NCBI GenBank assembly: GCA_964649245.1
Contig: CAZYOS010000001.1
Location: forward strand, 5,242-69,241
Length of the DNA stretch: 64,000 nt
Direction: 5' to 3'
Source: an uncultured Clostridium sp.
Lineage (GTDB): Bacteria > Bacillota_I > Bacilli_A > RF39 > UBA660
Both the position numbers and the translations under genes were made by a program. This document shows positions 9,005-45,039 of the stretch, piece by piece (positions within the stretch are counted from its first letter, which is position 1; every line of letters begins with the position of its first letter). The notes beneath the pieces were generated by a model. That model was given only the letters and a program-made list of their open reading frames with translations. It was not told where the DNA came from and did not search any database.

Positions 9005-9274
9005 TTAACACTTAATATTATTCATGTCATTAGAAACTTTTTTATCCTTTGAATGGTCATTAATCATTTTTTCTATTGACTTTGGAGTTCTAAGAGATTT
9101 TCTATCAATTCTTGTTGGTTGTATTTCAATTCCTAAGTCTTCTAATTCAGTGAATAATTCAATAAAGGCATATGAATCTAATAGTCCACTTTCTATCAAA
9201 TCAAAATTAGGATTATATACATTTTCATCCTCACATATTTTATATAATAGTTCTGATACATTAATCATATTCAC
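9005..9274 (-). CDS. dltC: D-alanyl carrier protein (DltC-type)
   Basis: ESGLLDSYAFIELFTELEDLGIEI...LRTPKSIEKMIN matches DltC (EEGLLDSFGTVELL...W.TP..I), including the phosphopantetheinyl Ser in LLDS. Confidence 0.7.
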   Translation of the reverse strand: MNMINVSELLYKICEDENVYNPNFDLIESGLLDSYAFIELFTELEDLGIEIQPTRIDRKSLRTPKSIEKMINDHSKDKKVSNDMNNIKC

Positions 9275-9728
9275 TCAACTTCTTTCTATCTATCTTTAAA
9301 TTTTTATTAACAGGCATTTTGTCTAATAATATGATCTTTTTAGGTATCATATATGCAGGTAAACTTTTAGTTAATTCTTTCTTTATATATTTTTCATCAT
9401 AGCACGATTCCAATACAACAAAAGCTACTATACTTTTAACTATATTATTTTTATTTAGCTTGGCGCTAACAACACTATCTTTAACACCTTTAATAATATT
9501 AATATTTCTTTCTATATCTTCAAGTTCAATTCTATAACCATTATATTTAATTTGATTGTCTTTTCTACCTTTGCAATATAATTTATTATCTTTTATATAA
9601 CCTATATCACCAGTTCTATAGCAGTTAATATTATTTTCTTTTGCAGAAATGTATTTAAAATATATATTCATCATTTCATCATTGATGTTAAATCTTAAAT
9701 TACCTAAATTTTCTAAAATATCTTTCAA
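9261..9728 (-). CDS. DltA-like adenylation enzyme, C-terminal subdomain only (A8-A10 motifs); N-terminal core absent
   Basis: 155 aa. YRTGDIGYIKDNKLYCKGRKDNQIKYNGYRIELEDIE is the A8 hinge motif and MPVNKNLKIDRKKL is the A10 lysine motif, collinear with the last 115 aa or so of DltA. It has its own RBS (AAAGAGG) and a sigma-A-like promoter, and overlaps dltC by 14 nt. Confidence 0.6.
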   Translation of the reverse strand: MKDILENLGNLRFNINDEMMNIYFKYISAKENNINCYRTGDIGYIKDNKLYCKGRKDNQIKYNGYRIELEDIERNINIIKGVKDSVVSAKLNKNNIVKSIVAFVVLESCYDEKYIKKELTKSLPAYMIPKKIILLDKMPVNKNLKIDRKKLSEYD

Positions 9729-9951: not shown

Positions 9952-10028
9952 TGGCGTCCTTGGGCAGATTCGAACTGCCGACTTACCGCTTAGGAGGCGA
10001 TTACTCTATCCTACTGAGTTACAAGGAC
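9952..10028 (-). tRNA. tRNA-Arg (anticodon CCU)
   Basis: Hand-folded cloverleaf: acceptor GTCCTTG/CAAGGAC, D-arm ACTC/GAGT, anticodon stem ATCGC/GCGGT with loop CTCCTAA, T-arm GGCAG-TTCGAAT-CTGCC, CCA encoded. Confidence 0.85.
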
Positions 10029-13644: not shown

Positions 13645-14640
13645 CTATTCTTTTAAAGTTGCATATATTACAGCCTTAATAGTATGCATTCTATTTTCAG
13701 CTTCATCAAATACAATTGATTGAGAAGATTCAAATACTTCATTAGTTACTTCCATTTCAGGAATACCAAATTTATTATTTATATCTACTGCTATAGATGT
13801 ATTTAAATCATGAAATGATGGTAATGCATGTAAGAATACAGCAGTATCTTTAGCATATCCCATTGTTTTTTTATTAACTTGATATGGTTTTAATAAATTA
13901 ATTCTTTGTTCCCAAATCTCATCTGGTTCTCCCATAGATACCCAAACATCAGCATATAATGCATCAGCATCTTTAAGTCCTTCTTTAATGTCATCAGTTT
14001 GAGAAATAGTGCATCCATTTTTCTTAGCTATTTTTTTACACTCATCTATTAATTCTTCATCAGGACACCATAATTCTTTAGGGCCACATGCTACAAAATT
14101 AACTCCCATCTTCGCACTCATAACCATTAATGATCTGGCAACATTATTTCTAGTATCTCCCATAAAAACCAATTTTAATCCTTTAAGACTTCCAAAATGT
14201 TCTTCCATTGTCATGAAATCTGCTAATACTTGAGTAGGATGAAATGAGTCAGTTAATCCATTCCATACAGGTACTCCAGAATATTTAGAAAGTTCTTCTA
14301 CTGCTGTTTGTTTAAATCCTCTAAACTCTATTCCTTCATACATTCTTCCAAGTACTCTAGCAGTATCTGCTATACTTTCTTTCTTTCCCAATTGACTTCC
14401 ACTTGAATCTAAATAAGTAACATTCATTCCTAAATCATATCCTGCTACTTCAAATGAACATCTTGTTCTAGTAGATGTCTTTTCAAATATTAAAGCAATA
14501 TTTTTTCCTCTTAGATATCTATGTGATTCGTGTGCATGTTTCTTCTTTTTAAAATCAATTGCTAAATCAAGTAAATATCTTATTTCTTCTTCATTGAAAT
14601 CTAATATTTTTAAAAAACTTTTTCCTCTTAAATCTATCAT
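13645..14640 (-). CDS. arcB: ornithine carbamoyltransferase (catabolic, ADI pathway)
   Basis: STRTRCSFE carbamoyl-phosphate binding motif and the HxLP-type motif (FLHALP). Immediately downstream of arcA. Confidence 0.85.
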   Translation of the reverse strand: MIDLRGKSFLKILDFNEEEIRYLLDLAIDFKKKKHAHESHRYLRGKNIALIFEKTSTRTRCSFEVAGYDLGMNVTYLDSSGSQLGKKESIADTARVLGRMYEGIEFRGFKQTAVEELSKYSGVPVWNGLTDSFHPTQVLADFMTMEEHFGSLKGLKLVFMGDTRNNVARSLMVMSAKMGVNFVACGPKELWCPDEELIDECKKIAKKNGCTISQTDDIKEGLKDADALYADVWVSMGEPDEIWEQRINLLKPYQVNKKTMGYAKDTAVFLHALPSFHDLNTSIAVDINNKFGIPEMEVTNEVFESSQSIVFDEAENRMHTIKAVIYATLKE

Positions 14641-15861
14641 TTAATCCTCTCTTTCTAGGGCCATACTCATACAATGAGGTCCCCCTCTACCACGTGATAG
14701 CTCTGAACTAGGTATTTCAATAACTTTTATTCCAGATTTTCTAAATACCTCATTTGATACATGATTTCTATCATACGCTACTACTACACCAGGTCTTATT
14801 GTTAATAAGTTAGCTCCATCACTCCATTGTTCTCTTTCAGCTGGTATTCTTTTTCCTCCACCACACTTAATTAGCTTTACGTCTTTGATATGTAAATATT
14901 TTTCAAGCACTTTGTCAATTGGAGTGTTAAGCTCTGTGATATTAATTTCTCCGTCTTTTCCCTTACTTATTTCAAATATTGTAGATACTTGCATTACTTG
15001 AGAATGAACTGCAAAAACATTTTCATCAACTCTAGTCATAACCGTATCTAAATGCATAAAACTTCTTTCATCTGGTATATCAATAGCCAATATATATTTA
15101 AATTTATTATTTAAATCACTAAATAAATTTTTAGCTAATAATGCTATCGCATCAGGTTCAGTCCTTTCCGATATTCCTATTGCTAATACTTCATCACTAA
15201 GCACTTGAATATCTCCACCTTCAATATGATATGCATTATATCTATCATAATATTTTGGTGCATCTTTATAATCAGGATGATATTTAAATATATATTCTGC
15301 TAATATTGTTTCTCTTTGTCTAGTAACAGAATACATTCTATGTAATGAAATTCCATCTCCTATACTTGCAAATGGATCTCTAGGTGCATATAAATTTGGA
15401 AGAGGATCAAGAATCATCTTTCCTATATCCCTAGTAGCAAAAAATCCACTACTTGGTCTATATCCTTCTAAATCTTCTGAATCAATACCAGCAATACATT
15501 TACTAATAAGTGTTCTACTATCTTCAAAGCTATTTAAATAATCATATACTAATTCAAATACTCTATCAGAAGTAACTCCACCCTCTCTTATAAATTGTCT
15601 TAAAAACTTTTCTCTAACTTTAGGATGTGTATCTAAAGCTTCTGCTGCTAAATCGACTAGATATACTACTTCCACCCCCTCAGCTCTTAAAGCACCAGCA
15701 AAAACATCATGCTCTTCTTGAGCTTTTTTCAAAAATGGAATATCATCAAATAATAATCTTTGTAATGTATTTGGTGTAAGGTTTAAAAATTCATCCCCTG
15801 GCCTATGTAATAAAACTTTTTTAAGTGGTTTAATTTCACTATAAACGCGAATTCCTGTCAT
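14641..15861 (-). CDS. arcA: arginine deiminase
   Basis: 406 aa. N-terminus MTGIRVYSEIKPLKKVLLHRPGDE and C-terminal catalytic Cys block GGPHCMSMALER are typical of ArcA. Confidence 0.9.
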   Translation of the reverse strand: MTGIRVYSEIKPLKKVLLHRPGDEFLNLTPNTLQRLLFDDIPFLKKAQEEHDVFAGALRAEGVEVVYLVDLAAEALDTHPKVREKFLRQFIREGGVTSDRVFELVYDYLNSFEDSRTLISKCIAGIDSEDLEGYRPSSGFFATRDIGKMILDPLPNLYAPRDPFASIGDGISLHRMYSVTRQRETILAEYIFKYHPDYKDAPKYYDRYNAYHIEGGDIQVLSDEVLAIGISERTEPDAIALLAKNLFSDLNNKFKYILAIDIPDERSFMHLDTVMTRVDENVFAVHSQVMQVSTIFEISKGKDGEINITELNTPIDKVLEKYLHIKDVKLIKCGGGKRIPAEREQWSDGANLLTIRPGVVVAYDRNHVSNEVFRKSGIKVIEIPSSELSRGRGGPHCMSMALERED

Positions 15862-15945
15862 ATTAAAATCTCCCTTCTATTCTTAACTTAGTTTAATTAT
15901 AACTTTAAATAAAAAAAAAGTAAATGATTATACAAGATTTACCTT
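15862..15945 (-). promoter_or_regulatory. arcAB leader: terminator-like hairpin plus extended -10 promoter and RBS
   Basis: Minus strand: GGTAAATC..GATTTAC hairpin followed by T9, TGTATAAT extended -10, AAGGGAG RBS 8 nt before the ATG. Confidence 0.4.
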
Positions 15946-16650
15946 TTATTTTAAAAAACTTTTTACCATTTCATTTTCACTATTTAATATTTTACTAGGT
16001 GTTCCATATTCTACTACTTTACCATCTCCTAGAAACAATACTTTAGTAGCAAAACTTTCTATTAATGACATTTCATGTGATACAACTATTATAGTCTTCT
16101 TTTTAGATAATTCCTTTAATAATTCAATAAAATCTTTTACGACCTCTGGATCTAATGCAGAAGTTGGTTCATCAAATAATAGAATATCAGGATTTATTGC
16201 AAGTGTTCTAGCGATAGCAACTCTTTGTTTTTCTCCACCACTTAATGTTTTGGGATATTCATTTGCTTTATCTAAAATATGTACTATCTCAAGTAAATTA
16301 TTTGCCTTTTCTGATATATCATCTTTAGTACCTTTTTTAAGTAACCTGGGTGCCAAAGTAACATTTTCTTTAGCTGTTAAATGAGGAAATAAATTATAGT
16401 TTTGAAAAACCATACCAACTTTAGTCCTTATATATATATCATCTAAATCTTTATAATTTTTATTGTTTAAATATATATTTCCACTAGTAGGAGTTTCAAA
16501 TTTATTAAGACATCTAAGTAAAGTAGTCTTACCGCCACCTGAAGGTCCAATGATTAATAATCTTTCTTTTTCTTTAACTTCAAAACTAATATTTTTAAAA
16601 ACTACTTGATTTCCAAATTTCTTACTTATATTATTTACTTTTAGCATCAA
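15946..16650 (-). CDS. amino-acid ABC transporter ATP-binding protein (GlnQ/HisP type)
   Basis: Walker A GPSGGGKTT, ABC signature LSGGEKQRVAIAR, Walker B ILLFDEPTSALD. Confidence 0.85.
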   Translation of the reverse strand: MMLKVNNISKKFGNQVVFKNISFEVKEKERLLIIGPSGGGKTTLLRCLNKFETPTSGNIYLNNKNYKDLDDIYIRTKVGMVFQNYNLFPHLTAKENVTLAPRLLKKGTKDDISEKANNLLEIVHILDKANEYPKTLSGGEKQRVAIARTLAINPDILLFDEPTSALDPEVVKDFIELLKELSKKKTIIVVSHEMSLIESFATKVLFLGDGKVVEYGTPSKILNSENEMVKSFLK

Positions 16651-17347
16651 TATCTAACCTTCTTTCTATTCTTTTCATAAGGCTACTTAATATTCCAGTT
16701 ATAAGTAAATAAATAATTGCTATTATAATTAATGGAAAGAAATAATCATATGTTCTAGATGCTATTATATCAGAAGACTTTGTTAAATCTATAATTCCAA
16801 TATACCCAGCAACAGCTGTTTCTTTAATTAAGGTAATAAATTCATTTCCCATCGAAGGCAATGTATTTTTAATTACTTGTGGAATAATTATTTTAAATAA
16901 TACGTGTTTGTATTTGAGTCCTAAAGAAAGTCCTGCTTCCATTTGACCATAGTCTAAATTATCAAAGCCACTTCTAAGTATTTCAGAAGAATATGCAGCG
17001 CTATTTATTCCAAATGCTATCATTCCAATAAATATAGGATTTATGTTAGAAGTTTTAAATATAATATAATATATTATCATTAATTGTAATACAGAAGGAG
17101 TTCCTCTTATTATAGTTACATAAAGTTTAGAAATAGAATTAAGTATTTTCATTTTGCCAGTAATCTTATTAGTGTATCTAATAATTGATATTAAACTTCC
17201 AAGAAAAACACCAATAGCAATAGCACCTAATGATATAATTAATGTGTTTTTTAAGCCACCTAAAATGAGCATATACCTATCTTCATATATAACAGTATAT
17301 CTAAAATTATCAATTACATCTAATAACCACCTAGCAAATGCTTCCAT
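16631..17347 (-). CDS. amino-acid ABC transporter permease (HisM/GlnP family)
   Basis: 238 aa, 5 TM helices, EAA-like loop. Its 3' end overlaps the ATPase gene start. Confidence 0.8.
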   Translation of the reverse strand: MEAFARWLLDVIDNFRYTVIYEDRYMLILGGLKNTLIISLGAIAIGVFLGSLISIIRYTNKITGKMKILNSISKLYVTIIRGTPSVLQLMIIYYIIFKTSNINPIFIGMIAFGINSAAYSSEILRSGFDNLDYGQMEAGLSLGLKYKHVLFKIIIPQVIKNTLPSMGNEFITLIKETAVAGYIGIIDLTKSSDIIASRTYDYFFPLIIIAIIYLLITGILSSLMKRIERRLDIDAKSK

Positions 17348-17350
17348 AAA

Positions 17351-18079
17351 TCATGAAGAATAATTTATAATATATTCTTCTATCTTCCCTTCATTTATTA
17401 ACTTTTCCAAAACAATATTTATTGAATTTAATAACTCAGTATTACCCTTTTTAACAGCAATAGCGTATTTATCAGTAAATACTTCTATATCTAATATTTT
17501 AAGTTCAGAATTGCTTTTAACTAGTTCTAAAGCTGGTAAATAATCCATAATAATAGCATCTGACTTTGATGCTTTTACATCTTCAGCAGCAGATAAAAAT
17601 TTCTTTTGAGTATTTATTTTAACATTAGGATACTTTTCAGATAACCATAAATCAGCAACGCTTCCTAATTGTACAGAAATAGTTTTATTATCTAAATCAT
17701 CCAAAGATTGTATTCCATTATAATCATTTTTAACAACAATTACTTGTTTACTAGTAGCATATTCTATAGAAAAATCAACGCTCTTTTTTCTTTGTTCGGT
17801 AATGCTCATACCAGCAGCAGCAAAATCAGCTTTATCGGAATTTAATTCATTAATTAAAGAATCAAAAGCAACATCTTTAACAACAAGTTTTTTCCCTAGA
17901 TAAGAAGCAATTTCATTAGCGACATCAATATCAACTCCTACTATTTCATTATTAACATAAAATTCATATGGAGCAAATCCTGCCTCAGTAACCATTACTA
18001 TTTCATCAGAATTCTTTTTACAACCAGTAATTATAAATGAACACAATATTATAACAATAAATAATATAATCTTTTTCAT
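17351..18079 (-). CDS. amino-acid ABC transporter substrate-binding lipoprotein
   Basis: Lipobox IITGC after a signal peptide. Type-3 SBP fold sequence (polar amino acid family). Confidence 0.75.
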   Translation of the reverse strand: MKKIILFIVIILCSFIITGCKKNSDEIVMVTEAGFAPYEFYVNNEIVGVDIDVANEIASYLGKKLVVKDVAFDSLINELNSDKADFAAAGMSITEQRKKSVDFSIEYATSKQVIVVKNDYNGIQSLDDLDNKTISVQLGSVADLWLSEKYPNVKINTQKKFLSAAEDVKASKSDAIIMDYLPALELVKSNSELKILDIEVFTDKYAIAVKKGNTELLNSINIVLEKLINEGKIEEYIINYSS

Positions 18080-18167
18080 ATATACTCCTATAATAAAATT
18101 ATATCATTATTAATAATAAAATCAAATAATAATTTTTATTTATGATATAATATTACAAGAGGTTTTT

Positions 18168-18818
18168 ATGAAAAAAATATTATTAATAATTTTATTATTT
18201 ATCCCTAGCACAATCTTTGCATACGAAAACGATTATTTCAATATAACAATACCAGACAATTATAAAGAAATCGCTTCAGATGAAGATTCAACATATAAAT
18301 GGAATAGTGATAATGAAAATGAACTACCTAGTATTATAATCACAGTTGCTAAAAATACTGAATCAAACAAACAAGATGTTACAAATTTCACAAGTGAATC
18401 TATGGAAAAATATAAGAATGAAATTAAAAGTACAATAGATAAAAGTTTAAAAGAATATAACTTAGAAGTACAAGTTAGTGATTTAAAAATAGAAAAATTA
18501 AATATTTATGATTCACTTACCTATACTACAATATGGCCAACAAATGATACATATGGTTATGATACTTATCAAAAAAGCTATGTAATAACAACAAATAAAT
18601 ATATTGTTACTCTTATATGTTCAGTATCAAATGAAGAAGATGAAAACTCAGAAGAAATTATGAATATTATAAACACATTAACTATAAATGATGAATTAAT
18701 TGAAAAAAAGGGTTTCTTTGAAAAAAGAACAAATCAAATAATTATAGTTGGAGTAATAGCGGGAATAATTGGTTATATATTATCAGTTATAACAGACAAA
18801 AAAAAGGCTAAAAAATAG
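18168..18818 (+). CDS. secreted protein with C-terminal TM anchor and K-rich tail, unknown function
   Basis: Signal peptide MKKILLIILLFIPSTIFA, a 170-aa soluble domain, C-terminal helix IIIVGVIAGIIGYILSVI followed by KKKAKK. Strong RBS AAGAGG and TGATATAAT extended -10 upstream. Confidence 0.4.
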   Translation: MKKILLIILLFIPSTIFAYENDYFNITIPDNYKEIASDEDSTYKWNSDNENELPSIIITVAKNTESNKQDVTNFTSESMEKYKNEIKSTIDKSLKEYNLEVQVSDLKIEKLNIYDSLTYTTIWPTNDTYGYDTYQKSYVITTNKYIVTLICSVSNEEDENSEEIMNIINTLTINDELIEKKGFFEKRTNQIIIVGVIAGIIGYILSVITDKKKAKK

Positions 18819-18825
18819 TCTTTTT

Positions 18826-19446
18826 TTATGCAATATTTCTTTTCATTAATTTTAATGCATTATTCTCCTCTCTAGATACTGTAGCTTGAGACATCTCCAT
18901 ACTTAGTGCAGTTTCTTGTTGAGACATTCCATAATAGTATCTATATCTTATAATAGATTTCATAGGTTCTTCTAAACTATCAATTTCACTATCTAAAAGA
19001 ATCTTTTCAAAGAATTTATTATTATCTTCAATATAACTTACATTATCATCTTCAAGTGTTTTAGTAAAAGCAGTTCTTTCAATTATAGAGGCTAATTTGT
19101 ATTCATCTATATCCATAAAACTAGCTATTTCAAAAAAACTTACTTCCCTATTATAACTTTTACATAATAGCTCTCTTGTTTTTTTATATCTCCTATATAT
19201 ATCATAATAATCAGAACTTATTTTAATGTTTCTATCATTTCTTATATAATCAATTATCTCTCCTAAAATATAATTATAAGCGTAAGTACTAAATTTAACA
19301 TTTAAACTTCCTTCAAAATTTCTATATGCCTTAATTACACCAACACAACCAGCTTGATAGAGATCCTCAAAATTATATCCATTTTTATATTTATTTGCTA
19401 TAGAATATATAATCCCTTCACATTCTTTAATTAGTTCATTTTTCAT
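18826..19446 (-). CDS. sigma-70 family sigma factor, SigF/SigG/SigB-like (group 3)
   Basis: 206 aa. Region 2 YQAGCVGVIKAYRNFEGSLNVKFSTYAYNYILGEI is collinear with B. subtilis SigF (FQIGCIGLLKSVDKF..RFSTYAVPMIIGEI). Region 4 HTH IIRYRYYYGMSQQETALSMEMSQATVSR. Confidence 0.75.
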   Translation of the reverse strand: MKNELIKECEGIIYSIANKYKNGYNFEDLYQAGCVGVIKAYRNFEGSLNVKFSTYAYNYILGEIIDYIRNDRNIKISSDYYDIYRRYKKTRELLCKSYNREVSFFEIASFMDIDEYKLASIIERTAFTKTLEDDNVSYIEDNNKFFEKILLDSEIDSLEEPMKSIIRYRYYYGMSQQETALSMEMSQATVSREENNALKLMKRNIA

Positions 19447-19784
19447 ATAGAAAACACCCCAAGATAAGTTAACTCATTCTTAGTTCTAAAGCAATACTCA
19501 AATATATTACTATTACTTATGTTACTTGATATATTATCATTAATTTCACATACAGCTAATTTTCCTTTATGATTATTGATAATATTTGATAATTTAATAA
19601 GAGAATCAATTCCTCTATTATCTATTAATGAAACATCATATAAATTAACAGTAACATTTTTAGCATCTAATCTTAATAATATTGGTATAACTTCTTCCTC
19701 AAATAATCTAACTCTACTACCTACTAATACACCTTTAATTCTAATAAATAATATTCCTTTCCTAAACTCAATGCTTGTAGTCAT
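19443..19784 (-). CDS. STAS-domain protein (SpoIIAA/RsbV-like anti-sigma-factor antagonist)
   Basis: 113 aa. Collinear with SpoIIAA (VNLYDVSLIDNRGIDSLIKL vs LNLEDLSFMDSSGLGVIL). The phosphorylatable Ser position appears to be occupied by Arg. Stop/start overlap ATGA with the sigma gene. Confidence 0.65.
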   Translation of the reverse strand: MTTSIEFRKGILFIRIKGVLVGSRVRLFEEEVIPILLRLDAKNVTVNLYDVSLIDNRGIDSLIKLSNIINNHKGKLAVCEINDNISSNISNSNIFEYCFRTKNELTYLGVFSI

Positions 19785-19846
19785 TTCATCACCTAAATAA
19801 ACTATACTAGAATTATTTTTTTTTAGTTGAATTCGACATATTTAGA

Positions 19847-20986
19847 TTATTTATTCATATGACATTTATCTACAATAATTTTAATTATTATTATTAAAAA
19901 GAATACACAAACAAGTATAATATTTAAATACTTATATATATCATCAGAAGTTTTAGGATTTATTTCAATATGTGATATTTCACTCACTTCACTTACCTCA
20001 CTAATTTTGCTTATCTTATCTTTTCTTTTAACATATTCACTAAAGCAAAAGTTTTTATAACAATATGGATCCCCCTCATCCATTAATTCACCTTTAATAT
20101 TGTAGATAACTAAACAATCATCAATATATCTATAGTAAGTAACAGAATCATTAACATCTTTAATATATCCATCATATTCAGTAAAATATCCTTCTACATA
20201 CTCTTTTTGTATAACATATGTTTTATATAATTTATCTCTATATTTAAATAGTGTAATAGTTTTTTCAAGATTAGAGCTAAATACATCACTATCATATTCT
20301 AAACTAATAGAACATCCAGAAGGACAATCACCTAAGGAAAGTCTTCCATAAAATATCTCATTATCTGGTCCTGCATTAAAAGCAAGAGTTAAATATTTAT
20401 ATCCAGATGTAACAGATTTATAATGAATTATAACTTCCAAATCACTAACATTATATTTTTTATTAAGATTCATTAAAACATTCATACTTCTACTTGTAGT
20501 AACATAATCCTCAAATAAATTATCATTTAAAATAGTAGGATCCAAATCATTATTAAGTACATTTCCAAATTCATAGTCTACTATAATATTTCTATTTTTA
20601 TCTTTAATATCTATTTCATATATATACACATTACTTATAAAAACAAAGTCTCTTAATTTAATATAATCAATATCAGTATTACTAAATGTATACAATTTAG
20701 TTTCAGATATTATCTCTCTTTCTTCTTTCATATCTGGTTCATATATACTTTCTTCACTATAATCACTATATTTAAAATCAGTAGAATCATAAATCTTTTC
20801 ACCAATAGATTCTTTAATTAAATATTCAATATTTATAATATTCTCTTTAAACCATCTATATCTAACTTCACTTTCTATAAATTTTTTATCTACATCATCT
20901 GGATATTCAGTACTCCATTCAGTGTAATTGTATGCTTTAATTGATGTAAAACTAAAGCATAATAATAACAATAATATTTTTTTCAT
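19847..20986 (-). CDS. secreted protein with C-terminal TM anchor, unknown function
   Basis: Signal peptide MKKILLLLLCFSFTSIKA, a 330-aa Cys-containing domain, an SKISEVSEVSEIS repeat, and C-terminal helix IILVCVFFLIIIIKIIV. Confidence 0.4.
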   Translation of the reverse strand: MKKILLLLLCFSFTSIKAYNYTEWSTEYPDDVDKKFIESEVRYRWFKENIINIEYLIKESIGEKIYDSTDFKYSDYSEESIYEPDMKEEREIISETKLYTFSNTDIDYIKLRDFVFISNVYIYEIDIKDKNRNIIVDYEFGNVLNNDLDPTILNDNLFEDYVTTSRSMNVLMNLNKKYNVSDLEVIIHYKSVTSGYKYLTLAFNAGPDNEIFYGRLSLGDCPSGCSISLEYDSDVFSSNLEKTITLFKYRDKLYKTYVIQKEYVEGYFTEYDGYIKDVNDSVTYYRYIDDCLVIYNIKGELMDEGDPYCYKNFCFSEYVKRKDKISKISEVSEVSEISHIEINPKTSDDIYKYLNIILVCVFFLIIIIKIIVDKCHMNK

Positions 20987-21061
20987 TTTATCTCCTTCTA
21001 ATATAATTATTATTAATTACTATACAAAACACTTGTATTTATAATACTTTTTAATGACAAA

Positions 21062-21847: not shown

Positions 21848-22666
21848 TTATTTAGTAACACTCAATACTATGTCTTCAAGATATAAATCATTGTAAAATT
21901 TATTAGAAGTTAATTGATTTAGATATTTTTGAATTAAACTTTTCGTTTCTTTGCATGATTTTCTATAGCATACTCTTAAAAACATACCGATAATTGGAAA
22001 ATCATCAATTATCTTAATTAAATCTAAATCATGATATACTTCTATAATAGACTTAATAATTAAGAATGCACTATAATAATCTTCAAAAGAAATATAATTT
22101 TTAACATCAAACAAATAATCTTTTATACAATCATTTTCAACAAGATCAGTGCTACAAATATTATATAAATTATTATAATAATATTCATATTCTTGCTTAG
22201 GTGCATATTTTATAAAATCTTTTTCTAACCTATTTTCATCAATTCTAATTACATTTTTATTTTTATCATTAATTATATATTCTTTAATTTCTCCTGCAGG
22301 TATTAATTCTAATAATTTGTGAGTACTTATCTTCTTTTTGATTATATGAGGCATTAATTTAACATTAGTATAATCTCCATCATCTATTGCAAGTAAAGTT
22401 GCATATTCATGCTTACAAAAATATTCATAAGGACATGTGCAGTCCATTACAAGTTCATTATTTTTTTCTTCAATTGTAATATTATAATTATGATCTCCAT
22501 TAACAGTTGCGTAATACACTCCATCAGACTTAATACAATTTAATATTTTACCATCTTCATAATAATCTTCTCCCCTATCCCTAATTATACGAGAAAAAAG
22601 ATTACCATATTTTTCTACTAAACCCTTATTAACAATTTCTTTTGTTTTTGCACTCATTTTAATCAC
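21848..22666 (-). CDS. SWIM zinc-finger domain protein
   Basis: C-x-C-x(n)-C-x-H arrangement in MDCTCPYEYFCKHEYATLLAI. Confidence 0.45.
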   Translation of the reverse strand: MIKMSAKTKEIVNKGLVEKYGNLFSRIIRDRGEDYYEDGKILNCIKSDGVYYATVNGDHNYNITIEEKNNELVMDCTCPYEYFCKHEYATLLAIDDGDYTNVKLMPHIIKKKISTHKLLELIPAGEIKEYIINDKNKNVIRIDENRLEKDFIKYAPKQEYEYYYNNLYNICSTDLVENDCIKDYLFDVKNYISFEDYYSAFLIIKSIIEVYHDLDLIKIIDDFPIIGMFLRVCYRKSCKETKSLIQKYLNQLTSNKFYNDLYLEDIVLSVTK

Positions 22667-22697: not shown

Positions 22698-23843
22698 TTA
22701 ATATAGAATATTAATTTTTCCATTTATAACATCTTTTATTTGATTTACAAAAGTATTAAAATAATTAGATTTTTTAACGCATTCTTTTACTATTAAATCA
22801 TATGAATACATTTCATCATTATATGTTAATTTAAGTTTACCAATAACACTATTATTATCTAAAGGAGCTTTTACAGGTAACATTTCTTCTTCTATTTTAT
22901 AATTAACATTATCAGTATTCTTATCAACTATAATATTAACATCATCTTTTAAATAATATTTAACATTTCTCAATTTAGAATTAGGTATATAAATATTACC
23001 ACTATACTTTTCTTTACTAACTATATTTTTACTTCCATACATACTATACCCATATTCAAGTAGATTAATAGTATCAGTACTTCTATTATCTTTAGTATCA
23101 ACTCCCATAACTATACTAATAAGTCTCATATTATTCTTTTTCATAGTAGCTGTTAAACAATATAAAGCATTATCAGTATAACCTGTTTTAAGACCATCTA
23201 TGCCGTTATAAAACTTAACCAACTTATTTGTATTAACAAGCCAATGATTAACATCAGAAACCATAATATAGTCCTCATAAGTACTAGTTATTTTTAAAAT
23301 ATAATCATAAGTAACAAGTTTTTTAGCAATTAAACTTAAATCATATGCAGTACTATAATGATTCTCTTCATCCAAACCATGAGGATTCATAAAATTAGTA
23401 TTTTTACATCCAAGTTCCTTAGCCCTCTTGTTCATCATACTAACAAAATTTTCCTCGGTACCACCAATATACTCAGCCATAGCACTAGCAGCATCATTAG
23501 CAGAAGCAATACCCATACCCTTAATTAAATTTTCAGCACTAACATAAGTATTCTCTTTAGCAAATATTTGAGTACCACCTTTACTAGAAGCATTCTTCGA
23601 TATAAAAACTTGATCCTCTAAAGATATTTTATTCTTTTCAAGAGCTTCCATAGTAAGTAATAAAGTCATCATTTTAGTCATAGATGCAGGGCTTCTCTTT
23701 TCATGAATGTTGTTTTCATAAAGTATTTTCCCAGTAGAACTCTCTATCAAAATAGAACTCTTAGAATACTTAGTAATTTCTTCAGCATTTATTATACATA
23801 TAGATAAGAACACCATAATAATAATTAATATAATCTTTTTCAT
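22698..23843 (-). CDS. D-alanyl-D-alanine carboxypeptidase (PBP5/DacF-type, S11 peptidase)
   Basis: Signal peptide. SxxK (SPASMTKMMT), SxN (ASANDAA), KTG (KTGYT). C-terminal beta-sandwich region. Confidence 0.85.
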   Translation of the reverse strand: MKKIILIIIMVFLSICIINAEEITKYSKSSILIESSTGKILYENNIHEKRSPASMTKMMTLLLTMEALEKNKISLEDQVFISKNASSKGGTQIFAKENTYVSAENLIKGMGIASANDAASAMAEYIGGTEENFVSMMNKRAKELGCKNTNFMNPHGLDEENHYSTAYDLSLIAKKLVTYDYILKITSTYEDYIMVSDVNHWLVNTNKLVKFYNGIDGLKTGYTDNALYCLTATMKKNNMRLISIVMGVDTKDNRSTDTINLLEYGYSMYGSKNIVSKEKYSGNIYIPNSKLRNVKYYLKDDVNIIVDKNTDNVNYKIEEEMLPVKAPLDNNSVIGKLKLTYNDEMYSYDLIVKECVKKSNYFNTFVNQIKDVINGKINILY

Positions 23844-24404
23844 TTATTCACCACTAAAGTATATGATTAGTTAATAAATTTATGTTTGAAATTAATATAT
23901 TTTATTCTAATAATATAACTAAAAAATTATTTTCCTAAATTGTTTTTTTAATCACTATACGTAATTGTAACATAATATGTAGAGAGAAAAGAATTATGAG
24001 GTATAAACAAATATTTATAAATGTCCAAAAGGAGCAATGGAATTAATACTTGTATTACTAACTCCAGAAAAATCACTTGTTATTATAGGAAATGATGGTG
24101 TAAGAAAAATAGTTATCGTAGAAGGGCTTGCTTACCTAATAAAAATAAAAAAGCACCAAAATGTTAAACAACTATACTATTACAAAAATAGATATAACTT
24201 CATTTGCGTGTATAGCATTAAATAGCTCTTCAAGAGTAAAACCAAAACACGTAATAAAAGCTATAAATTATTGTAAAAAAATAAAAGAATCGCAATAAAC
24301 AAATGCATTGATTTAACTACAACAATAATTACATGAATTAAAAGAATAACCACGAGATAAAATATTACAATTTAAACGAAATTAATAAATAAAAATCCTT
24401 CAAT

Positions 24405-25568
24405 CTATTTTGAAGGATTTTGTTTATCATGACAAATTATTTTTTTAATAATTTGCTTACTTTTAATAATAATTCTAGTATACAAAGACTTAGTTGCATA
24501 TTTTTTTGATAATTTATCAAAAGATGTATTATTCAAATCTTTAAAAAATTTTTTTCTGTTTTTTGGTGATTTAGATGATAACTTCAAACTACTATTATTT
24601 TTTAATATCTCATCAATACTACATTTCTTATATACTAAATCTTTTTTAATACAATCAAATATTTCTTTTCCAATATTCGTATTAATAATTATCGCTGATA
24701 CGCCTTCTTTATTATATATCTCAGGATAATAACTCTTTACACCCCAAAAATCTCCAAGAGTAATATCCGAATATTTATTATCCAATTTAAAATTACAATT
24801 ATAACAACTTTCTCTAAGTGCAACATCACATAAAAATAATTTCATATATGAATTTTCAGATGCTAATTCACATATATTTTTTTTCTTAAATTTAGCTGTA
24901 TTAGAGTATGTATCCCATCCAGTTGAATTATCCCTAAAATTATATTCAATTAATTTGTCATTATTATTAAGTTCTAATTCATCAACATATTTTTTATATA
25001 ATTTTGGACTTGGAACACCATGACAAAATAAATCAATGCAAATTAAATTACTATTCTCTTCTCTAATAAAAGACTTTAGTCCTGCTACTTGACAAGGAGT
25101 CCCTACAAACAATACTTTTCTAGTTTTTATATTTGATTTAATCTCAATAAAAATGTTTTTTAAATCGCTTTGTAAATATTTTGAACCTTTTAATTTTTCA
25201 AGATTTTTAATATCTTTTACAATATAATGCTCCAGTCTATTATTATTAAAAGCAGCACCAACTACAATACCATTATCAGATAAAATATTTTTTGCAATTA
25301 ATTCAAATATCCCTCCAGAAGAAGATGTCTTTCTACTATTAATATTTTTATTATATCCAGCATAACAAATATTTATAGATTTATTATTATTTTTATTTAT
25401 TACTGGACACTTCTTTTTGCATAAACCACAATTAATACATTTTTTTTCATCAATATTAGGATAACTAAAACCATCTATATCCTCTATCATACTAATTGCC
25501 CTCTTAGGGCAAGAATTATAGCAAGCACCACAACCAGTACAACACTTTTTATTTACTATCTCTTTCAT
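24405..25568 (-). CDS. Fe-S flavoprotein of the coenzyme F420 hydrogenase/dehydrogenase beta-subunit (FrhB/FdhB-like) family, polysaccharide-modification associated
   Basis: N-terminal 2x[4Fe-4S] ferredoxin motifs (CCTGCGACYNSCP, CINCGLCKKKCP), then an FrhB-like body. Last gene of the glycan operon, adjacent to the pyruvyl transferase. Confidence 0.55.
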   Translation of the reverse strand: MKEIVNKKCCTGCGACYNSCPKRAISMIEDIDGFSYPNIDEKKCINCGLCKKKCPVINKNNNKSINICYAGYNKNINSRKTSSSGGIFELIAKNILSDNGIVVGAAFNNNRLEHYIVKDIKNLEKLKGSKYLQSDLKNIFIEIKSNIKTRKVLFVGTPCQVAGLKSFIREENSNLICIDLFCHGVPSPKLYKKYVDELELNNNDKLIEYNFRDNSTGWDTYSNTAKFKKKNICELASENSYMKLFLCDVALRESCYNCNFKLDNKYSDITLGDFWGVKSYYPEIYNKEGVSAIIINTNIGKEIFDCIKKDLVYKKCSIDEILKNNSSLKLSSKSPKNRKKFFKDLNNTSFDKLSKKYATKSLYTRIIIKSKQIIKKIICHDKQNPSK

Positions 25569-25585
25569 ATATTATCACCTCATAT

Positions 25586-27115
25586 TTATTTTTTACTTGT
25601 AATCATTTTAATTTTATCTAATAATAGTTTAACATATTTCTTTTCATATGAATTAAATTCTAAGAAATATAAAAGTAAAAAATAAATAATAGAATAAATA
25701 ATAATATATAAGATAAATATAAATCCAGAATCAACTAACAAGTATTGTTTAAAAATTAAAGCACCTATAGTAATAAGAATTATTATTATAAACATTTTTC
25801 CTATTTTTTTGAAAAACTTTATCATATTTAAATTTAATGATTTTTGATAATAAATATTTCTTATGATAACATTACATAATATTAATGAAAGTGATGTACC
25901 TATGGCTGCGCCTAATCCACTATATAGTTTTATCAGTGGTATACTAATAATTACATTTAAAATTGAAGATAAAAATAAAATTATAGACATAAATTTTTGT
26001 TTCTTTTTTGCTTGCATAATACTAATTCCGACATTTTGTACTAGGGGAATTATCACTGGTATCATAAGTGCTAAAGCAATAAAATATGATTCGTAATATT
26101 TTTTTCCAACCCAATATAATATGAACTTTTCACCAAATATAATAAATCCACTTAATATTAGACCAACTACAATTAATTGTATTCTACCTGTTCTAATCAT
26201 CATGTTAGTTAAATCATCATCACTACATCCATTATCAATCATTTTTGTAACTTTAGGTAATAAAACTCCCGAAATAGCCGTTGAAAAAGAAATATATATT
26301 TGATTTATTTGAGATGCTATTGAATATATCGATACGCTTACTGTACCAGTAATCGTACCTAATAAAAAATTATCTAAACTCCAATTTATTTTATCAACAA
26401 ATGAATTTAAAAACATCCAGAAAGATAAAGAAAAAATTTCAATTATTAACAACTTATTCAATTTGCATTTTTTTATAGATATTTTTAATTTTTTCTTACA
26501 AAATATATAATTAGAAACATTACACGCAATATTTAATATTGTTAGTACAATACACAATGCTATTGATCTAAAACCAAAATATAGTAATGGTATCATTATA
26601 CATGGTGTAATAATAATTCTAATTATATTAACTATTTTAGCATATATAAATTTCTCATAAGAAGTAATTATTGAGTTATAGATACTAAAAGCAAATGTTA
26701 TAACTAAATTAATAATAAGTATAATCATTAATTTTCTTGCTAATATAATTTCAATTACATCTAATGAATTTTTAAATATATTTCCTATATTAAAATAAAT
26801 AATAATTCCTAATATTAAAGCAACAATTCCTGTAATTAAATATAATAAAGCAAAAGTACCATATAACTTTTCTTCTCCGATTTTATCATTTTTTTTCTTA
26901 TATCTTGTAGAAAAAATTACTATTGCATTTCCAAAGCCAAAATCAAGTAACATTAAATATGATATTACAGATGTAACTAAAGAATACAATCCATATTCTG
27001 ATTGCCCTAATTTACCTGTCAATATGGGCGTATAGATTAATGCTACTAATAAGTTTAAAAAAATAATAATATAGGATAACACTGCACCTATTTTTCTTTG
27101 TTTACTATCACTCAT
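25586..27115 (-). CDS. wzx: Wzx-type oligosaccharide flippase (MOP superfamily polysaccharide biosynthesis protein)
   Basis: 509 aa, about 14 TM helices, no soluble domain. Position inside the glycan operon. Confidence 0.7.
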   Translation of the reverse strand: MSDSKQRKIGAVLSYIIIFLNLLVALIYTPILTGKLGQSEYGLYSLVTSVISYLMLLDFGFGNAIVIFSTRYKKKNDKIGEEKLYGTFALLYLITGIVALILGIIIYFNIGNIFKNSLDVIEIILARKLMIILIINLVITFAFSIYNSIITSYEKFIYAKIVNIIRIIITPCIMIPLLYFGFRSIALCIVLTILNIACNVSNYIFCKKKLKISIKKCKLNKLLIIEIFSLSFWMFLNSFVDKINWSLDNFLLGTITGTVSVSIYSIASQINQIYISFSTAISGVLLPKVTKMIDNGCSDDDLTNMMIRTGRIQLIVVGLILSGFIIFGEKFILYWVGKKYYESYFIALALMIPVIIPLVQNVGISIMQAKKKQKFMSIILFLSSILNVIISIPLIKLYSGLGAAIGTSLSLILCNVIIRNIYYQKSLNLNMIKFFKKIGKMFIIIILITIGALIFKQYLLVDSGFIFILYIIIYSIIYFLLLYFLEFNSYEKKYVKLLLDKIKMITSKK

Positions 27116-27130
27116 TAACTTCTCTTTCCA

Positions 27131-28186
27131 TTATTTTAATGCTTTAGTTAAAAAGTCTTCACTTTTCTTTCTTTCATTAGCAAGTATTTTGTATGATTTT
27201 TCATAGTTGCATTCTAAATCAACTTTTTTAATTTTACCAGAAAACCTTCTATTATTCAAATCAAACTTATTAAGAAGCGTATCAATTCTAGAAGTCATGC
27301 TCTTAAGATTATTTTGTTTCCTATCAAAAACTATAAATGGTCTATTATATAATATTGCAAATACACAAGAATGAAATGAATCAGTACATATCAAAAAAGC
27401 ATGTTTCTCTAAATATAGAAATTCACTTGGCCCACATACATAATATTTGCTTTTTAGATCCAATATATTAATTATTTCACATCCATTTTCTTTTGCTACT
27501 CTTTCTATTTCAACTTTCTTATCATTAGATAATTCTCCTAAAAAATAATTTAATATATATTTTTTACAATCTAGCATTTTAGGTTTAATAGACACTTTGT
27601 CCCAATCTTTAGATGTTAATAACATTGTAGGATCTACAAGAACTTCAACATCATTTCTTCCTGTTAAATCTTCAACTATTTTCTTACCAGCATCCTCTCT
27701 AACAGAAATTGCTTTAAACTTAATTAACTCTTTGCTTGCTTGTTTCTTAATATTATCTGGTAATTCACTTACTCCAAAGCTTGCAGAAAAAGATATTTTA
27801 TTTCCATTAATATTGGTTAATAAATCTAACTTACTCATCCTTTTAATGCATGGATTCCATACTTGATCACTTCCAACAACATAATTATTAAATCCTGATA
27901 TCTTTTTAGGAGAATAATAGTTATATATTCTTTTTGAAAACACCATATTTGATTCATTAAATTTTTTAAATTTTTTTTCTCTTAATATTTGTTTTTCACT
28001 TTTTTGTTTATAATTTAATATTTTTTTCACAATTATTTTAAATTTAGTAATTAATTGAAAATCATCATTTCTAATAATTTCACAACCTAAACCCAATTTT
28101 TTTATAAATATATACAAAGCATAATTTTGTAATCTGTTTCCAAAATTATTTAAATCATAAATGCTGATTAATGCGACATTTTTCAT
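27131..28186 (-). CDS. polysaccharide pyruvyl transferase (CsaB/WcaK family)
   Basis: N-terminus MKNVALISIYDLNNFGNRLQNYAL is typical of the PS_pyruv_trans family (G-x-x-N-x-G-D/N). Confidence 0.7.
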   Translation of the reverse strand: MKNVALISIYDLNNFGNRLQNYALYIFIKKLGLGCEIIRNDDFQLITKFKIIVKKILNYKQKSEKQILREKKFKKFNESNMVFSKRIYNYYSPKKISGFNNYVVGSDQVWNPCIKRMSKLDLLTNINGNKISFSASFGVSELPDNIKKQASKELIKFKAISVREDAGKKIVEDLTGRNDVEVLVDPTMLLTSKDWDKVSIKPKMLDCKKYILNYFLGELSNDKKVEIERVAKENGCEIINILDLKSKYYVCGPSEFLYLEKHAFLICTDSFHSCVFAILYNRPFIVFDRKQNNLKSMTSRIDTLLNKFDLNNRRFSGKIKKVDLECNYEKSYKILANERKKSEDFLTKALK

Positions 28187-29100
28187 TTTTTCACCTTATT
28201 TTTAATATAATTAATCGAAATATAAAGTTTTATACTTCTAATACCATTGACAAATTTAAATTTATTTATTGCTTTTTCATATTTCGAATAATATTTTTTA
28301 ATTTCATTTATACTTAATCCTTGTCTATATGCATCTTTTAATCTATAAACTATTAATGCTGGTAGTCTATAATTCAATAGTGCTGATTTTTCGCTTTTAG
28401 ATAATTGCATCTCTTTAATGATCTTATTTATTACAAAATAATCATCATCTATTTTATTTATTTTAAAATTTGACAATTTTACATTAGATGCGTTATTGTT
28501 GTATAATACTAAATTTTCTTTCAAAAATATTATTTTTTTACTATGGAAAATTGCTTTGCTAAAAAATTCAAAATCCTCTCCCCAGCTTAGTTTATCCGTA
28601 AATGAAAGTTTGTTTTTTTGTATAATACTATTTCTTATAACAAAGCAAGATGTCTGCAATTTTAATTTATTCAAAAAATAGTATTTTAAGCATTCTTCTT
28701 TATAATATTCTTTTGTAATCTTTGTACTATTATTACTTAAAAATGAACTATATCCACAATAACATAAATCTGCATCTTCTTTAATTAATTTATTATTAAT
28801 TTTCAACAAAAAACCTTGCTCATATTTATCATCAGAATCTAAAAAGCAAATAAAGTCCCCTGATGCTTTTTTTAATCCAAAGTTTCTTGCACTAGAAACT
28901 CCACCATTTTTTTTATTTAATAAAGTTATTTGATCATATTTTTTTTTCATTTTTTTGCATATATTAATTGAATTATCTGTTGAACCATCATTTACTATAA
29001 TTATTTCATAGTTAATATATGATTGCAAAACTACAGATTCTATTGTATTTTCAATTGTCTTTTCAGCATTATACATTGGGATAATTATTGAATATCGCAT
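28183..29100 (-). CDS. family 2 glycosyltransferase
   Basis: IIIPMYNAEKTIENTIESVVLQSY..YEIIIVNDGSTDNS GT-A fold N-terminal motif, DxD (LDSDD). Confidence 0.8.
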   Translation of the reverse strand: MRYSIIIPMYNAEKTIENTIESVVLQSYINYEIIIVNDGSTDNSINICKKMKKKYDQITLLNKKNGGVSSARNFGLKKASGDFICFLDSDDKYEQGFLLKINNKLIKEDADLCYCGYSSFLSNNSTKITKEYYKEECLKYYFLNKLKLQTSCFVIRNSIIQKNKLSFTDKLSWGEDFEFFSKAIFHSKKIIFLKENLVLYNNNASNVKLSNFKINKIDDDYFVINKIIKEMQLSKSEKSALLNYRLPALIVYRLKDAYRQGLSINEIKKYYSKYEKAINKFKFVNGIRSIKLYISINYIKNKVKK

Positions 29101-29114
29101 ATTTTTACTCTCCT

Positions 29115-30101
29115 TTATAATTTTATAATTCCCTTATTTTTTAAAAATACATAACTTTTTAATATATATCTACCAAGACTAATTCCAAATATTTTAAATA
29201 TTATATTACACATTTTTACTTTATGGCTTTCACTATTTTCTAATACATATTTGTATGTTAATATTTCTTTATATTTTTTTCTACTACAATTTTGCTTATT
29301 TATCAATGCTAGTAATATAGTATATTGATAAGCAAGATAATTTAAATAAATATTTTTTAATTTTAAATTATTATATTCTTTTTCACTCCAAAATTTTATT
29401 ATATAAAATAATGAATCAATATTATTCTTGCTTAAATTTGTAGTAACTGAACCTTCTCTTTGTTGCCTATAAACATATATATCTTCATTTATTAACTTTA
29501 TTGAATTACAATGAGAATATAATTTTAATGACCAGTCTATATCTTCTAATAATATCTTCTCATCAAAGAAAATTTTATTTTCAATTACTATACTTCTTTT
29601 TACAAATTTATTACATGGTGATATTGATAAGTCTTCACTTTTTACTAATTCATTCAAAATATCTAGATAATTTTCACATTTCACATTATAATTTCTTAAA
29701 TATATGTATTTATTTAATTTTTCATAATAATACATCATCTTATATTGTACTATGTCATCATTTAATTTTATGGATAAAAAATTGATTTTGTTTGAAATAA
29801 AATCATCACTATCAATAAACATTAAATATTCTCCGGATGAATGATTAATTCCGCAGTTTCTTGCACTTGATGCTCCTCCATTTTTTTTATGAAAAACACT
29901 TATTTCATTATATTTATCACTATATTCATCACATATTTTTCCACTATTATCTGTTGAACCGTCATCTACTAATATAATCTCGTAGTTTTCAATATTTGCA
30001 TGTAAAATGCTATCAACACATTTATTTATATATTTATCAACATTATAAACAGGTATAATAATACTTAATTTTTTCATATTTCCTCCTAGAATAAATAGCA
30101 C
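29115..30101 (-). CDS. family 2 glycosyltransferase
   Basis: LSIIIPVYNVDKYINKCVDSIL..YEIILVDDGSTDNS, DxD (IDSDD). Confidence 0.8.
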   Translation of the reverse strand: MLFILGGNMKKLSIIIPVYNVDKYINKCVDSILHANIENYEIILVDDGSTDNSGKICDEYSDKYNEISVFHKKNGGASSARNCGINHSSGEYLMFIDSDDFISNKINFLSIKLNDDIVQYKMMYYYEKLNKYIYLRNYNVKCENYLDILNELVKSEDLSISPCNKFVKRSIVIENKIFFDEKILLEDIDWSLKLYSHCNSIKLINEDIYVYRQQREGSVTTNLSKNNIDSLFYIIKFWSEKEYNNLKLKNIYLNYLAYQYTILLALINKQNCSRKKYKEILTYKYVLENSESHKVKMCNIIFKIFGISLGRYILKSYVFLKNKGIIKL

Positions 30102-31099: not shown

Positions 31100-31105
31100 A
31101 ACTTA

Positions 31106-32838: not shown

Positions 32839-32985
32839 TGAAAATCACCTTAATTGTTAAAAAGCATAAATGAGACATAGCAAAACCTTTCAATTATAAC
32901 AATAAAATATCAAGACTGATACTTCTTACTTAATGTTATCATAAAAGAATATTTTAGTAAAGAAATTGTCATAAAATGTGTACAT

Positions 32986-33011
32986 TAAAAAGGACTATAT
33001 TATATAGTCCT
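32986..33011 (-). terminator. rho-independent terminator after the LCP gene
   Basis: AGGACTATATAATATAGTCCT palindrome followed by T5 on the minus strand. Confidence 0.6.
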
Positions 33012-33108
33012 ACTTTACATCACTTTTGCTTGCAGAAACACACGATGCAAAAACAAACAACATTAATAATATTATAATCATATCTTATTATATGATTATA
33101 GCGTTACA

Positions 33109-44962: not shown

Positions 44963-45039
44963 TGGTGGAGAATGTGGGACTTGAACCCGCGACCCCCTGC
45001 GTGCAAGGCAGGTGCTCTAGCCAACTGAGCTAATTCCCC
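44963..45039 (-). tRNA. tRNA-Ala (anticodon UGC)
   Basis: Hand fold: acceptor GGGGAAT/ATTCTCC with the G3:U70 alanine identity pair, D-arm GCTC-AGTTGGCTA-GAGC, anticodon stem CCTGC/GCAGG with loop CTTGCAC, T-loop TTCAAGT, CCA encoded. One T-stem mismatch. Confidence 0.8.

Follow-up and report, generated by a model that had tools for sequence, protein, structure and literature searches.

Forespore-only activity of the sigma factor SigF is explained in the textbook account by a kinase/phosphatase partner switch, in which the classical role of the STAS-domain protein SpoIIAA is to release the sigma factor from the kinase SpoIIAB. The 64-kb stretch of DNA investigated here (the window; contig CAZYOS010000001.1, from an uncultured bacterium, GC content ~24%) contains a spoIIAA-like STAS gene joined directly to a sigF-like sigma factor gene, with no kinase gene between them. 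Is this a spoIIA operon from which spoIIAB has been lost? Is it a degenerate or paralogous copy, or a frameshifted remnant, of a normal spoIIA operon? Or, is the kinase encoded elsewhere in the genome? And what does a protein of the SpoIIAA type do where SpoIIAB is missing? A preliminary description, made from the sequence of the window alone, had drawn attention to the pair and called it an undescribed wiring.

The window locus is probably the spoIIA operon of a group of AT-rich, small-genome, cell-walled, uncultured Bacilli, an operon that has lost spoIIAB, is under the control of Spo0A, and encodes a STAS protein acting independently of a kinase. A kinase-less operon of this kind runs counter to the assumption that the SpoIIAB/SpoIIE switch is universal. 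The group, a large and abundant one among gut bacteria, comprises at least 100 clusters at 50% identity, and one sigma variant is found on >250 contigs. SigF, SpoIIAA, the Spo0A boxes and, in many members, spoVA are kept in this group; the kinase is gone from the operon and the phospho-serine has drifted.

The operon and its relatives

The first gene of the pair (19443..19784, minus strand) encodes a protein of 113 aa with a Pfam STAS match (E = 4e-9). When a profile of close relatives is used, the best matches in the PDB are the SpoIIAA chains 1TH8_B, 1TID_B and 1AUZ_A. An AlphaFold2 model made from a 96-sequence alignment has a predicted local distance difference test score of 91.9, and Foldseek superposes it on 1THN_B, the SpoIIAA of the SpoIIAA:SpoIIAB complex, with a TM-score of 0.91 and a root mean square deviation of 1.7 Å. 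By domain, sequence match and model it therefore has the SpoIIAA fold of a partner-switching antagonist. A Shine-Dalgarno sequence, AGGTGA, can be read directly at 19789..19794 on the same strand.

The second gene (18826..19446, minus strand) encodes a group-3 sigma factor of 206 aa with Pfam domains Sigma70_r2 and Sigma70_r4. Its top NCBIfam model is SigF, with 135 bits over model positions 13-231 of 231, ahead of SigG (119 and 107 bits), SigB (77 bits) and FliA. This score is far below the equivalog cut-off of 321 bits; orthology with SigF is supported by synteny (below). End-to-end alignment with the group-3 SigF, SigG and SigB models, region 3 included, rules out an extracytoplasmic function (group-4) sigma factor with an adjacent anti-sigma gene. 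An RsbV-RsbW-SigB module, in which a STAS antagonist likewise shares an operon with a group-3 sigma factor, is ruled out by the lower SigB score and the missing kinase; there, the RsbW kinase is encoded between the two and RsbU/RsbP phosphatases act on the system. The sigma factor had also been described as about 35 residues short at its N-terminus. This is true against B. subtilis SigF only and is ordinary for a short SigF, since in Oscillospiraceae the canonical SigF, encoded behind spoIIAB, exceeds it there by only ~8 residues.

The stop codon of the STAS gene and the start codon of the sigma gene share the ATGA at 19443-19446. This 4-nt overlap leaves no room for a kinase gene. Among the ~67 window open reading frames (ORFs) scanned, none has a HATPase or PP2C domain and no SpoIIE-type PP2C is present. 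We also built a SpoIIAB hidden Markov model (HMM) from 13 canonical SpoIIAB proteins, picked with the B. subtilis SpoIIAB sequence out of Clostridia loci found in the same contig scan as the related loci; among the matches listed in that scan, most were Clostridia SigF and SigG. The canonical loci score 222-259 bits with this model, and neither the 64-kb window nor the flanks of the related loci (up to 10 kb where the contig allowed) give anything above noise. The preliminary description thus read the pair correctly in several respects: the coordinates and overlap hold on the minus strand, the 113-aa protein is SpoIIAA-like, and no GHKL kinase lies between the genes.

Is the missing kinase a peculiarity of one assembly? 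Relatives of the sigma factor number in the hundreds at 49-67% identity, in metagenome-assembled genomes named 'Bacilli bacterium' and on contigs of up to 1.1-1.4 Mb. We compared 15 distinct STAS-sigma loci, all from uncultured AT-rich Bacilli: the window (W), L001, L002, L006, L008, L010, L012-L016, L018, L093, L095 and L098. In 15/15 the two genes adjoin or overlap each other directly, and none of these lineages has a kinase gene within the operon or close to it. Canonical SigF loci in the sample all have spoIIAB in the middle, flanked by the STAS and sigma genes, and the sampled STAS-containing loci split cleanly into those with spoIIAB (the 13 Clostridia loci) and the AT-rich Bacilli group. 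All 16 kinase-less sigma factors, including that of a locus without a STAS gene (L017), form one clade separate from Clostridia SigF and SigG in a neighbour-joining tree. The tree is crude, and suggests a single loss of the kinase. Region 2.3/2.4 of the sigma factor has the hallmark AYKYILGE, against AVPMIIGE in canonical SigF.

The neighbourhood is that of spoIIA. In B. subtilis the operon adjoins dacF, which encodes a D-Ala-D-Ala carboxypeptidase of the PBP5 type. A dacF-like gene of this type had been noticed upstream in the window, and it is indeed there (22698..23843, minus strand; Peptidase_S11, E = 7e-77, and PBP5_C). A PBP5-type gene is also a neighbour of the operon in L002, L003, L005, L013 and L014, and lies upstream in L002, L013 and L014; in L014 it is only one gene away from STAS, the one between being the orthologue of the window's gene X. 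Downstream, the deeper lineages L093 and L095 have SpoVAC_SpoVAEB, SpoVAD and SpoVAC_SpoVAEB genes (by Pfam) directly after the sigma gene, and the same three ORFs follow it in L016 and L018, as judged by size and sequence. The dacF - spoIIA - spoVA order is therefore represented by its upstream part in the window and by its downstream part in deeper relatives only; spoVA genes do not follow the sigma gene in the window or its sub-clade. Ahead of spoVAC in L016 (~8610-8660), L018 (~3300-3340) and L093 (~2125-2165) stands GTATA-N17-CA(T/C/A)AATA, which we take to be the classical forespore (SigF/SigG-type) promoter pattern, so the promoter specificity of forespore sigma factors seems to have been preserved in the clade. 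Sequence, fold and synteny make the locus the orthologue of spoIIA and no paralogous copy.

Purifying selection acts on both genes. For the three closest pairs, the ratio of non-synonymous to synonymous substitution rates (dN/dS, NG86) is 0.13-0.20 in STAS and 0.19-0.36 in sigma. The proteins of the window and of L002 are 75% identical for STAS and 59% for sigma; STAS is the more conserved member of the pair. A word-indexed search returned only 14 close relatives of the STAS protein. Searched exhaustively with HMMER, 1.84 billion cluster representatives gave 352 matches at E <= 1e-3, all of them proteins of the AT-rich type in which F, Y, I, N or K make up a median of 42% of residues.

Could the operon nevertheless be a non-functional relic, decaying in a lineage that no longer sporulates? 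The window has no other sporulation gene, stepwise loss of sporulation genes has been reported in related orders (PMC10868615), and among the relatives one lineage has lost the STAS start codon and another the whole STAS gene. We find this hardly credible given the intact ORFs in 15 lineages with sigma identity down to 37%, the dN/dS of 0.13-0.36 in the closest pairs, the conserved ribosome-binding sites and upstream Spo0A-type boxes, and the size of the STAS family. The locus is neither an assembly artefact nor a decaying remnant, because the STAS-sigma pair recurs in 15 lineages and the sigma gene alone in a sixteenth. The ideas of a frameshifted remnant and of a degenerate copy fall with this, and that of a paralogous copy falls with the synteny; the operon is indeed derived from spoIIA.

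The phospho-serine position and the Spo0A boxes

In a partner-switching antagonist the kinase acts on a serine, Ser58 of B. subtilis SpoIIAA, within a D-S-S-G loop. In the PDB profile alignment, which has no gaps here, this residue aligns with Arg57 of the window protein, in the motif L-I-D-N-R-G. The replacement of the phospho-serine had been predicted, and we infer that the window STAS protein cannot be phosphorylated at the classical site. Is this so in the whole family? Among 141 near-full-length cluster representatives, the flanking residues of the loop are retained, D55 in 137/141 and G58 in 130/141. Position 57 itself is Ser in 20/141 (14%), Lys in 28, Tyr in 17, Glu in 13, Ile in 11 and Asn in 9, with further residues making a total of 17 different ones. 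A site that tolerates 17 residues is no kinase substrate, and with Ser remaining in only 14%, and Asp and Gly kept, the phospho-serine is no longer under constraint in the family; phospho-control therefore appears to have been lost clade-wide. Those Ser-containing members that could be placed, L095 and L098 with D-S-S-G, are missing the kinase gene too. Thr2 and Thr3, considered as alternative phospho-acceptors, were rejected; they are invariant in the close clade only and unconserved in the wider family.

These counts bear on the possibility that classical partner switching goes on with spoIIAB and spoIIE located elsewhere, the STAS protein still being the antagonist of an anti-sigma kinase. 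Only 64 kb of the source genome is covered by the window, against relatives' contigs that reach 1.1-1.4 Mb; D55 and G58 belong to the kinase-docking loop, and a minority of the family has kept the Ser. For the order RF39, moreover, Field, Bowerman and Hugenholtz (2024, PMC10868615) describe these genes as diminished in presence or missing entirely, so some genomes may match. We nevertheless judge an unlinked kinase improbable. Seventeen different residues at the phospho-site, with Arg in the window, are incompatible with control by a kinase; SpoIIAB is found neither in the window nor in the flanks of any related locus, and in every canonical SigF locus sampled its gene lies between those for STAS and sigma. 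In addition, the sigma gene is intact where STAS is lost or decaying, and an anti-sigma factor without its antagonist would silence the sigma factor permanently.

If the kinase does not control the operon's product, what might control the operon? An exact TGTCGAA is present at 19832..19838 on the minus strand, 47 nt upstream of the STAS start, and is one of three copies in the 64 kb. This is the core of the Spo0A box; spoIIAA is a direct target of Spo0A in B. subtilis, and C. difficile Spo0A binds the region upstream of spoIIAA (PMC3485338). The core sits within a conserved block, TCTArnTTTGTCGAA, which every lineage has just upstream of the STAS gene. An exact forward TGTCGAA is found 46-62 nt before the first codon of the operon in 14/16 lineages, the sigma-only locus L017 included. 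This number combines 11/13 in a first set with L093, L095 and L097/L098, three loci that were chosen by STAS similarity only. Counted over both strands of 242 kb of DNA (485 kb in all), TGTCGAA occurs 21 times, and 13 of these copies are at this place. The block is kept whether it falls within the upstream gene's 3' end or in intergenic DNA, and in L008 and L013 it is read in two different reading frames; conservation across frames and in non-coding DNA indicates a DNA signal and no peptide.

A degenerate second box, TGTCATA, lies 26 nt upstream of the first (19858..19864, minus strand), within the upstream gene's 3' end. Elements of the form TGTC(G/A)nA or AGTC(G/A)nA stand at this distance of 26 nt in L001, L002, L010, L012, L014, L016 and L095. 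All of these are predicted Spo0A sites, read from the DNA. A sigma-H promoter with GTCGAAT as its -10 element was also considered for the block and rejected, as no AGGA-type -35 element is at the proper distance.

The role of the STAS protein

The window operon resembles the spoIIA-SpoIIE system of B. subtilis and the Clostridia in having a SpoIIAA-fold STAS gene first and a SigF-type sigma gene last, tightly packed, with a dacF-like gene upstream, spoVA downstream (in the deeper relatives) and Spo0A boxes in front. It differs in having no spoIIAB, in a phospho-serine that is replaced and unconstrained across the family, and in a sigma factor that is far below the SigF cut-off, whose region 3.2 is shorter and whose region 2.3/2.4 is altered; the window shows no SpoIIE either. 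To account for this we propose that the ancestor of the clade lost spoIIAB cleanly, which would have left spoIIAA joined to sigF. The operon would be switched on by Spo0A~P, so that the activity of sigma-F would be set mainly by transcription, without a kinase/phosphatase partner switch, and the STAS protein would persist as a kinase-independent modulator.

Some of this has been seen before. In RF39, spoIIAB and spoIIE are reduced or absent and other sporulation genes are kept (PMC10868615). These are likewise small-genome, gut-associated uncultured Bacilli, and the gene content of the window fits what is reported for RF39. However, that report gives presence and absence in one sentence, with no operon anatomy, SpoIIAA phospho-site or Spo0A boxes. 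In Turicibacter the canonical trio is present (PMC13492147). The claim of an undescribed wiring is thus to be narrowed: the gene loss is already on record, and the operon structure, the constrained SpoIIAA, the freed phospho-site and the Spo0A boxes appear to be undescribed in the literature searched. The preliminary description had overlooked that the Ser is lost clade-wide and that Spo0A boxes are conserved ahead of the operon.

What, then, is the STAS protein for? Two relatives are informative. In L010 (5665-6003) and L011 the STAS frame is open, but it has no ATG, GTG or TTG start, with ATA at the expected position. In L017 the STAS gene is missing altogether and the sigma gene is intact, with the Spo0A-type box. 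The classical role predicts that loss of STAS would silence the sigma factor, which would then decay, and the opposite is observed. With the sigma gene intact where STAS is startless or missing, STAS is not required to release sigma, while the constraint on STAS elsewhere, stronger than that on sigma, indicates that it has some function. A negative or tuning role, or one unrelated to sigma, fits better than that of a classical anti-anti-sigma factor.

The most likely single action, though we hold it only as a possibility, is that STAS binds the co-expressed sigma factor directly and holds or tunes it; another, unlinked partner in the genome is nearly as likely. In its fullest form the first alternative says that a STAS protein of the SpoIIAA type has changed partner and become a stoichiometric anti-sigma or holding factor on a SigF-type sigma factor, giving a two-protein, phosphorylation-free switch below Spo0A. 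We offer this tentatively, and on balance it is doubtful. If direct binding were true, a STAS protein would for the first time be seen to act on a sigma factor with no GHKL intermediary.

The nearest parallels go part of the way. HsbA of Pseudomonas aeruginosa is a STAS protein whose partner, FlgM, is no GHKL kinase-type anti-sigma factor; HsbA is still phosphorylated, by HsbR, and neither the organism nor the sigma class is related to that of the window. In the SsdA/SipA system of Actinoplanes missouriensis a STAS domain is physically tied to a sigma factor and serves as a regulatory contact (PMC10733313). There, however, STAS and the sigma factor form one fusion protein, and the anti-sigma domain of SipA binds to the STAS part, whereas the window STAS and sigma are separate proteins with no anti-sigma gene nearby.

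Several observations weigh against the reading of a Spo0A-controlled spoIIA operon with a kinase-independent STAS protein, or against its parts. Direct binding of a sigma factor by a STAS protein is not known to us from any characterised system. The overlap of the two genes is not universal in the clade, with gaps of 5-8 nt in L093, L095 and L098, and translational overlap is thus no evidence of complex formation. The search for a kinase covered the window and the flanks of the related loci, and the genome may encode a SpoIIAB-like or other anti-sigma protein elsewhere, unlinked to the operon. The Ser counted above at position 57 includes complete SSG motifs in L095 and L098. Between L010 and L011 the STAS frame shows 2 non-synonymous and 0 synonymous changes and the sigma gene 0 and 2, which are very small counts. 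No spo0A gene is present in the 64-kb window, and the Spo0A-box assignment is a sequence match plus analogy. The canonical Clostridia spoIIAA loci are a weak positive control, with a forward TGNCGAA within <=200 nt in 2/13 and, counting the reverse strand, in 4/13; few matches are expected there because genuine Spo0A targets often have degenerate boxes (PMC3485338). Finally, none of the ~67 window ORFs is another sporulation gene, so the organism may or may not sporulate.

The kinase-less operon can be read in two ways, as compartment-specific activation of SigF by another route or as a simplified Spo0A-to-SigF cascade. Under both, SpoIIAA must have a function independent of SpoIIAB. STAS and sigma are small and easily synthesised, which makes direct testing possible. 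The answer bears on whether RF39-like gut bacteria sporulate and hence on models of their transmission.

Three further observations concern the loci with a startless or missing STAS gene. The L010/L011 lineage (sigma P0029) is the most abundant one, listed in 228 blocks of the collection. In it an IS605 OrfB/TnpB gene (6685-7809) is inserted between the sigma gene and gene Y. In L017 the sigma gene comes directly after a 6S RNA gene (7693-7877, plus strand; Rfam RF00013, 57.8 bits).

Flanking genes and the rest of the window

The STAS-sigma pair is bracketed by two genes for secreted proteins, X and Y, which had been put forward as candidate members of the sigma regulon. Gene X (19847..20986, minus strand) encodes a protein of 379 aa and is a syntenic neighbour of the operon. 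No Pfam or NCBIfam family matches it. An alignment of 11 orthologues shows an N-terminal signal peptide, the conserved motifs YSEWS, RYxWYKE and YKYxDKLYKTY, and a C-terminal NPKTSD (NPKT(S/G/L/Y)D in orthologues L001-L016) followed by a hydrophobic, transmembrane segment and a basic tail. This layout resembles a sortase-B-type cell-wall sorting signal; no sortase gene is seen in the window. The gene evolves fast (dN/dS 0.35-0.96) and has only 4 database matches. Gene Y (18168..18818, plus strand), which is convergent and syntenic in the window's sub-clade, encodes a protein of 216 aa that also has a signal peptide, a C-terminal transmembrane anchor and a basic tail (dN/dS 0.20-0.47). The preliminary description of their architecture was accurate.

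Gene X was considered as an anti-sigma factor and rejected on topology. A membrane anti-sigma factor has an N-terminal cytoplasmic domain, and both X and Y begin with a signal peptide and have only a short cytoplasmic tail.

Might the sigma factor of the window's sub-clade have been repurposed for a small regulon outside sporulation, for example one of surface proteins such as X and Y? This would be compatible with the loss of the kinase and with Spo0A control. The order X-STAS-sigma-Y is retained in 10 lineages, in this sub-clade the spoVA genes no longer adjoin the operon, and the sigma factor departs from canonical SigF in region 4.2 as well as in region 2.3/2.4. There is also a conserved motif that is unlike that of sigma-A upstream of gene X. 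This AAGTGTTTT (21026..21034, minus strand) is ~45 nt before the gene, with a TATAAT-like box 17-18 nt later. It is present in W, L001, L002, L006, L008, L010, L012, L013 and L015, and as AAGTGTTC in L014; the invariant form, AAGTGTTT(T), at the -35 position, is unlike the -35 consensus of sigma-A, sigma-H or forespore sigma factors. Together with the TATAAT-like box it is a candidate promoter or operator of gene X.

Other evidence points away from repurposing, which we regard as unlikely, though with a real chance of being right. Gene Y has a sigma-A-like extended -10 element, TGATATAAT, at 18143-18151, and the element is of the sigma-A type in most lineages; X and Y have no promoter motif in common. 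AYKYILGE is present in spoVA-linked lineages too, where the spoVAC genes of L016, L018 and L093 keep their classical GTATA-N17-CAnAATA forespore promoter, and the Spo0A-type boxes are retained. When the window was searched for forespore-type promoters (G[TCA]ATA-N15-18-CAnA[ACT]TA), 5 matches were obtained against 5.8 expected, none of them ahead of a gene, so the proposed regulon membership of X and Y is unsupported. Upstream of the dacF-like gene (~23850-23900), ACATA-N15-CATATAC stands just before the ribosome-binding site, and the weaker pattern nnATA-N15-CATAnTA is shared by W, L002 and L014. As a forespore promoter it is unconvincing, with a spacing 2-3 nt short in DNA of 24% GC.

The remaining functions in the window are housekeeping, cell-wall, exopolysaccharide and arginine-deiminase functions. 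Genes for arginine deiminase and ornithine carbamoyltransferase lie beside an amino-acid ABC transporter (13645-18079, minus strand). This block follows the STAS-sigma cassette in most relatives, which indicates that the whole region is syntenic across the clade. On the other side, an ORF of 272 aa (21848-22666, minus strand) with a SWIM zinc-finger match that is weak and below the cut-off (E = 0.003) lies between the dacF-like gene and a formate/nitrite transporter gene; it is missing from this place in L002, L013 and L014. Beyond, an exopolysaccharide cluster (24405-34578, minus strand) encodes a sugar transferase, GT1, an EpsG-like polymerase, two GT2, a pyruvyl transferase, a flippase, an FrhB-like Fe-S protein and an LCP-family protein. 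An ORF of 155 aa (9261-9728, minus strand) matches the C-terminal domain of AMP-binding enzymes only and may be the remnant of a truncated gene. Genes for tRNA-Arg(CCT) and tRNA-Ala(TGC) are found at 9952-10028 and 44963-45039, both on the minus strand. The RNase P RNA (51377-51712, minus strand; 244 bits) is of class B, which fits an origin in a low-GC Gram-positive bacterium.

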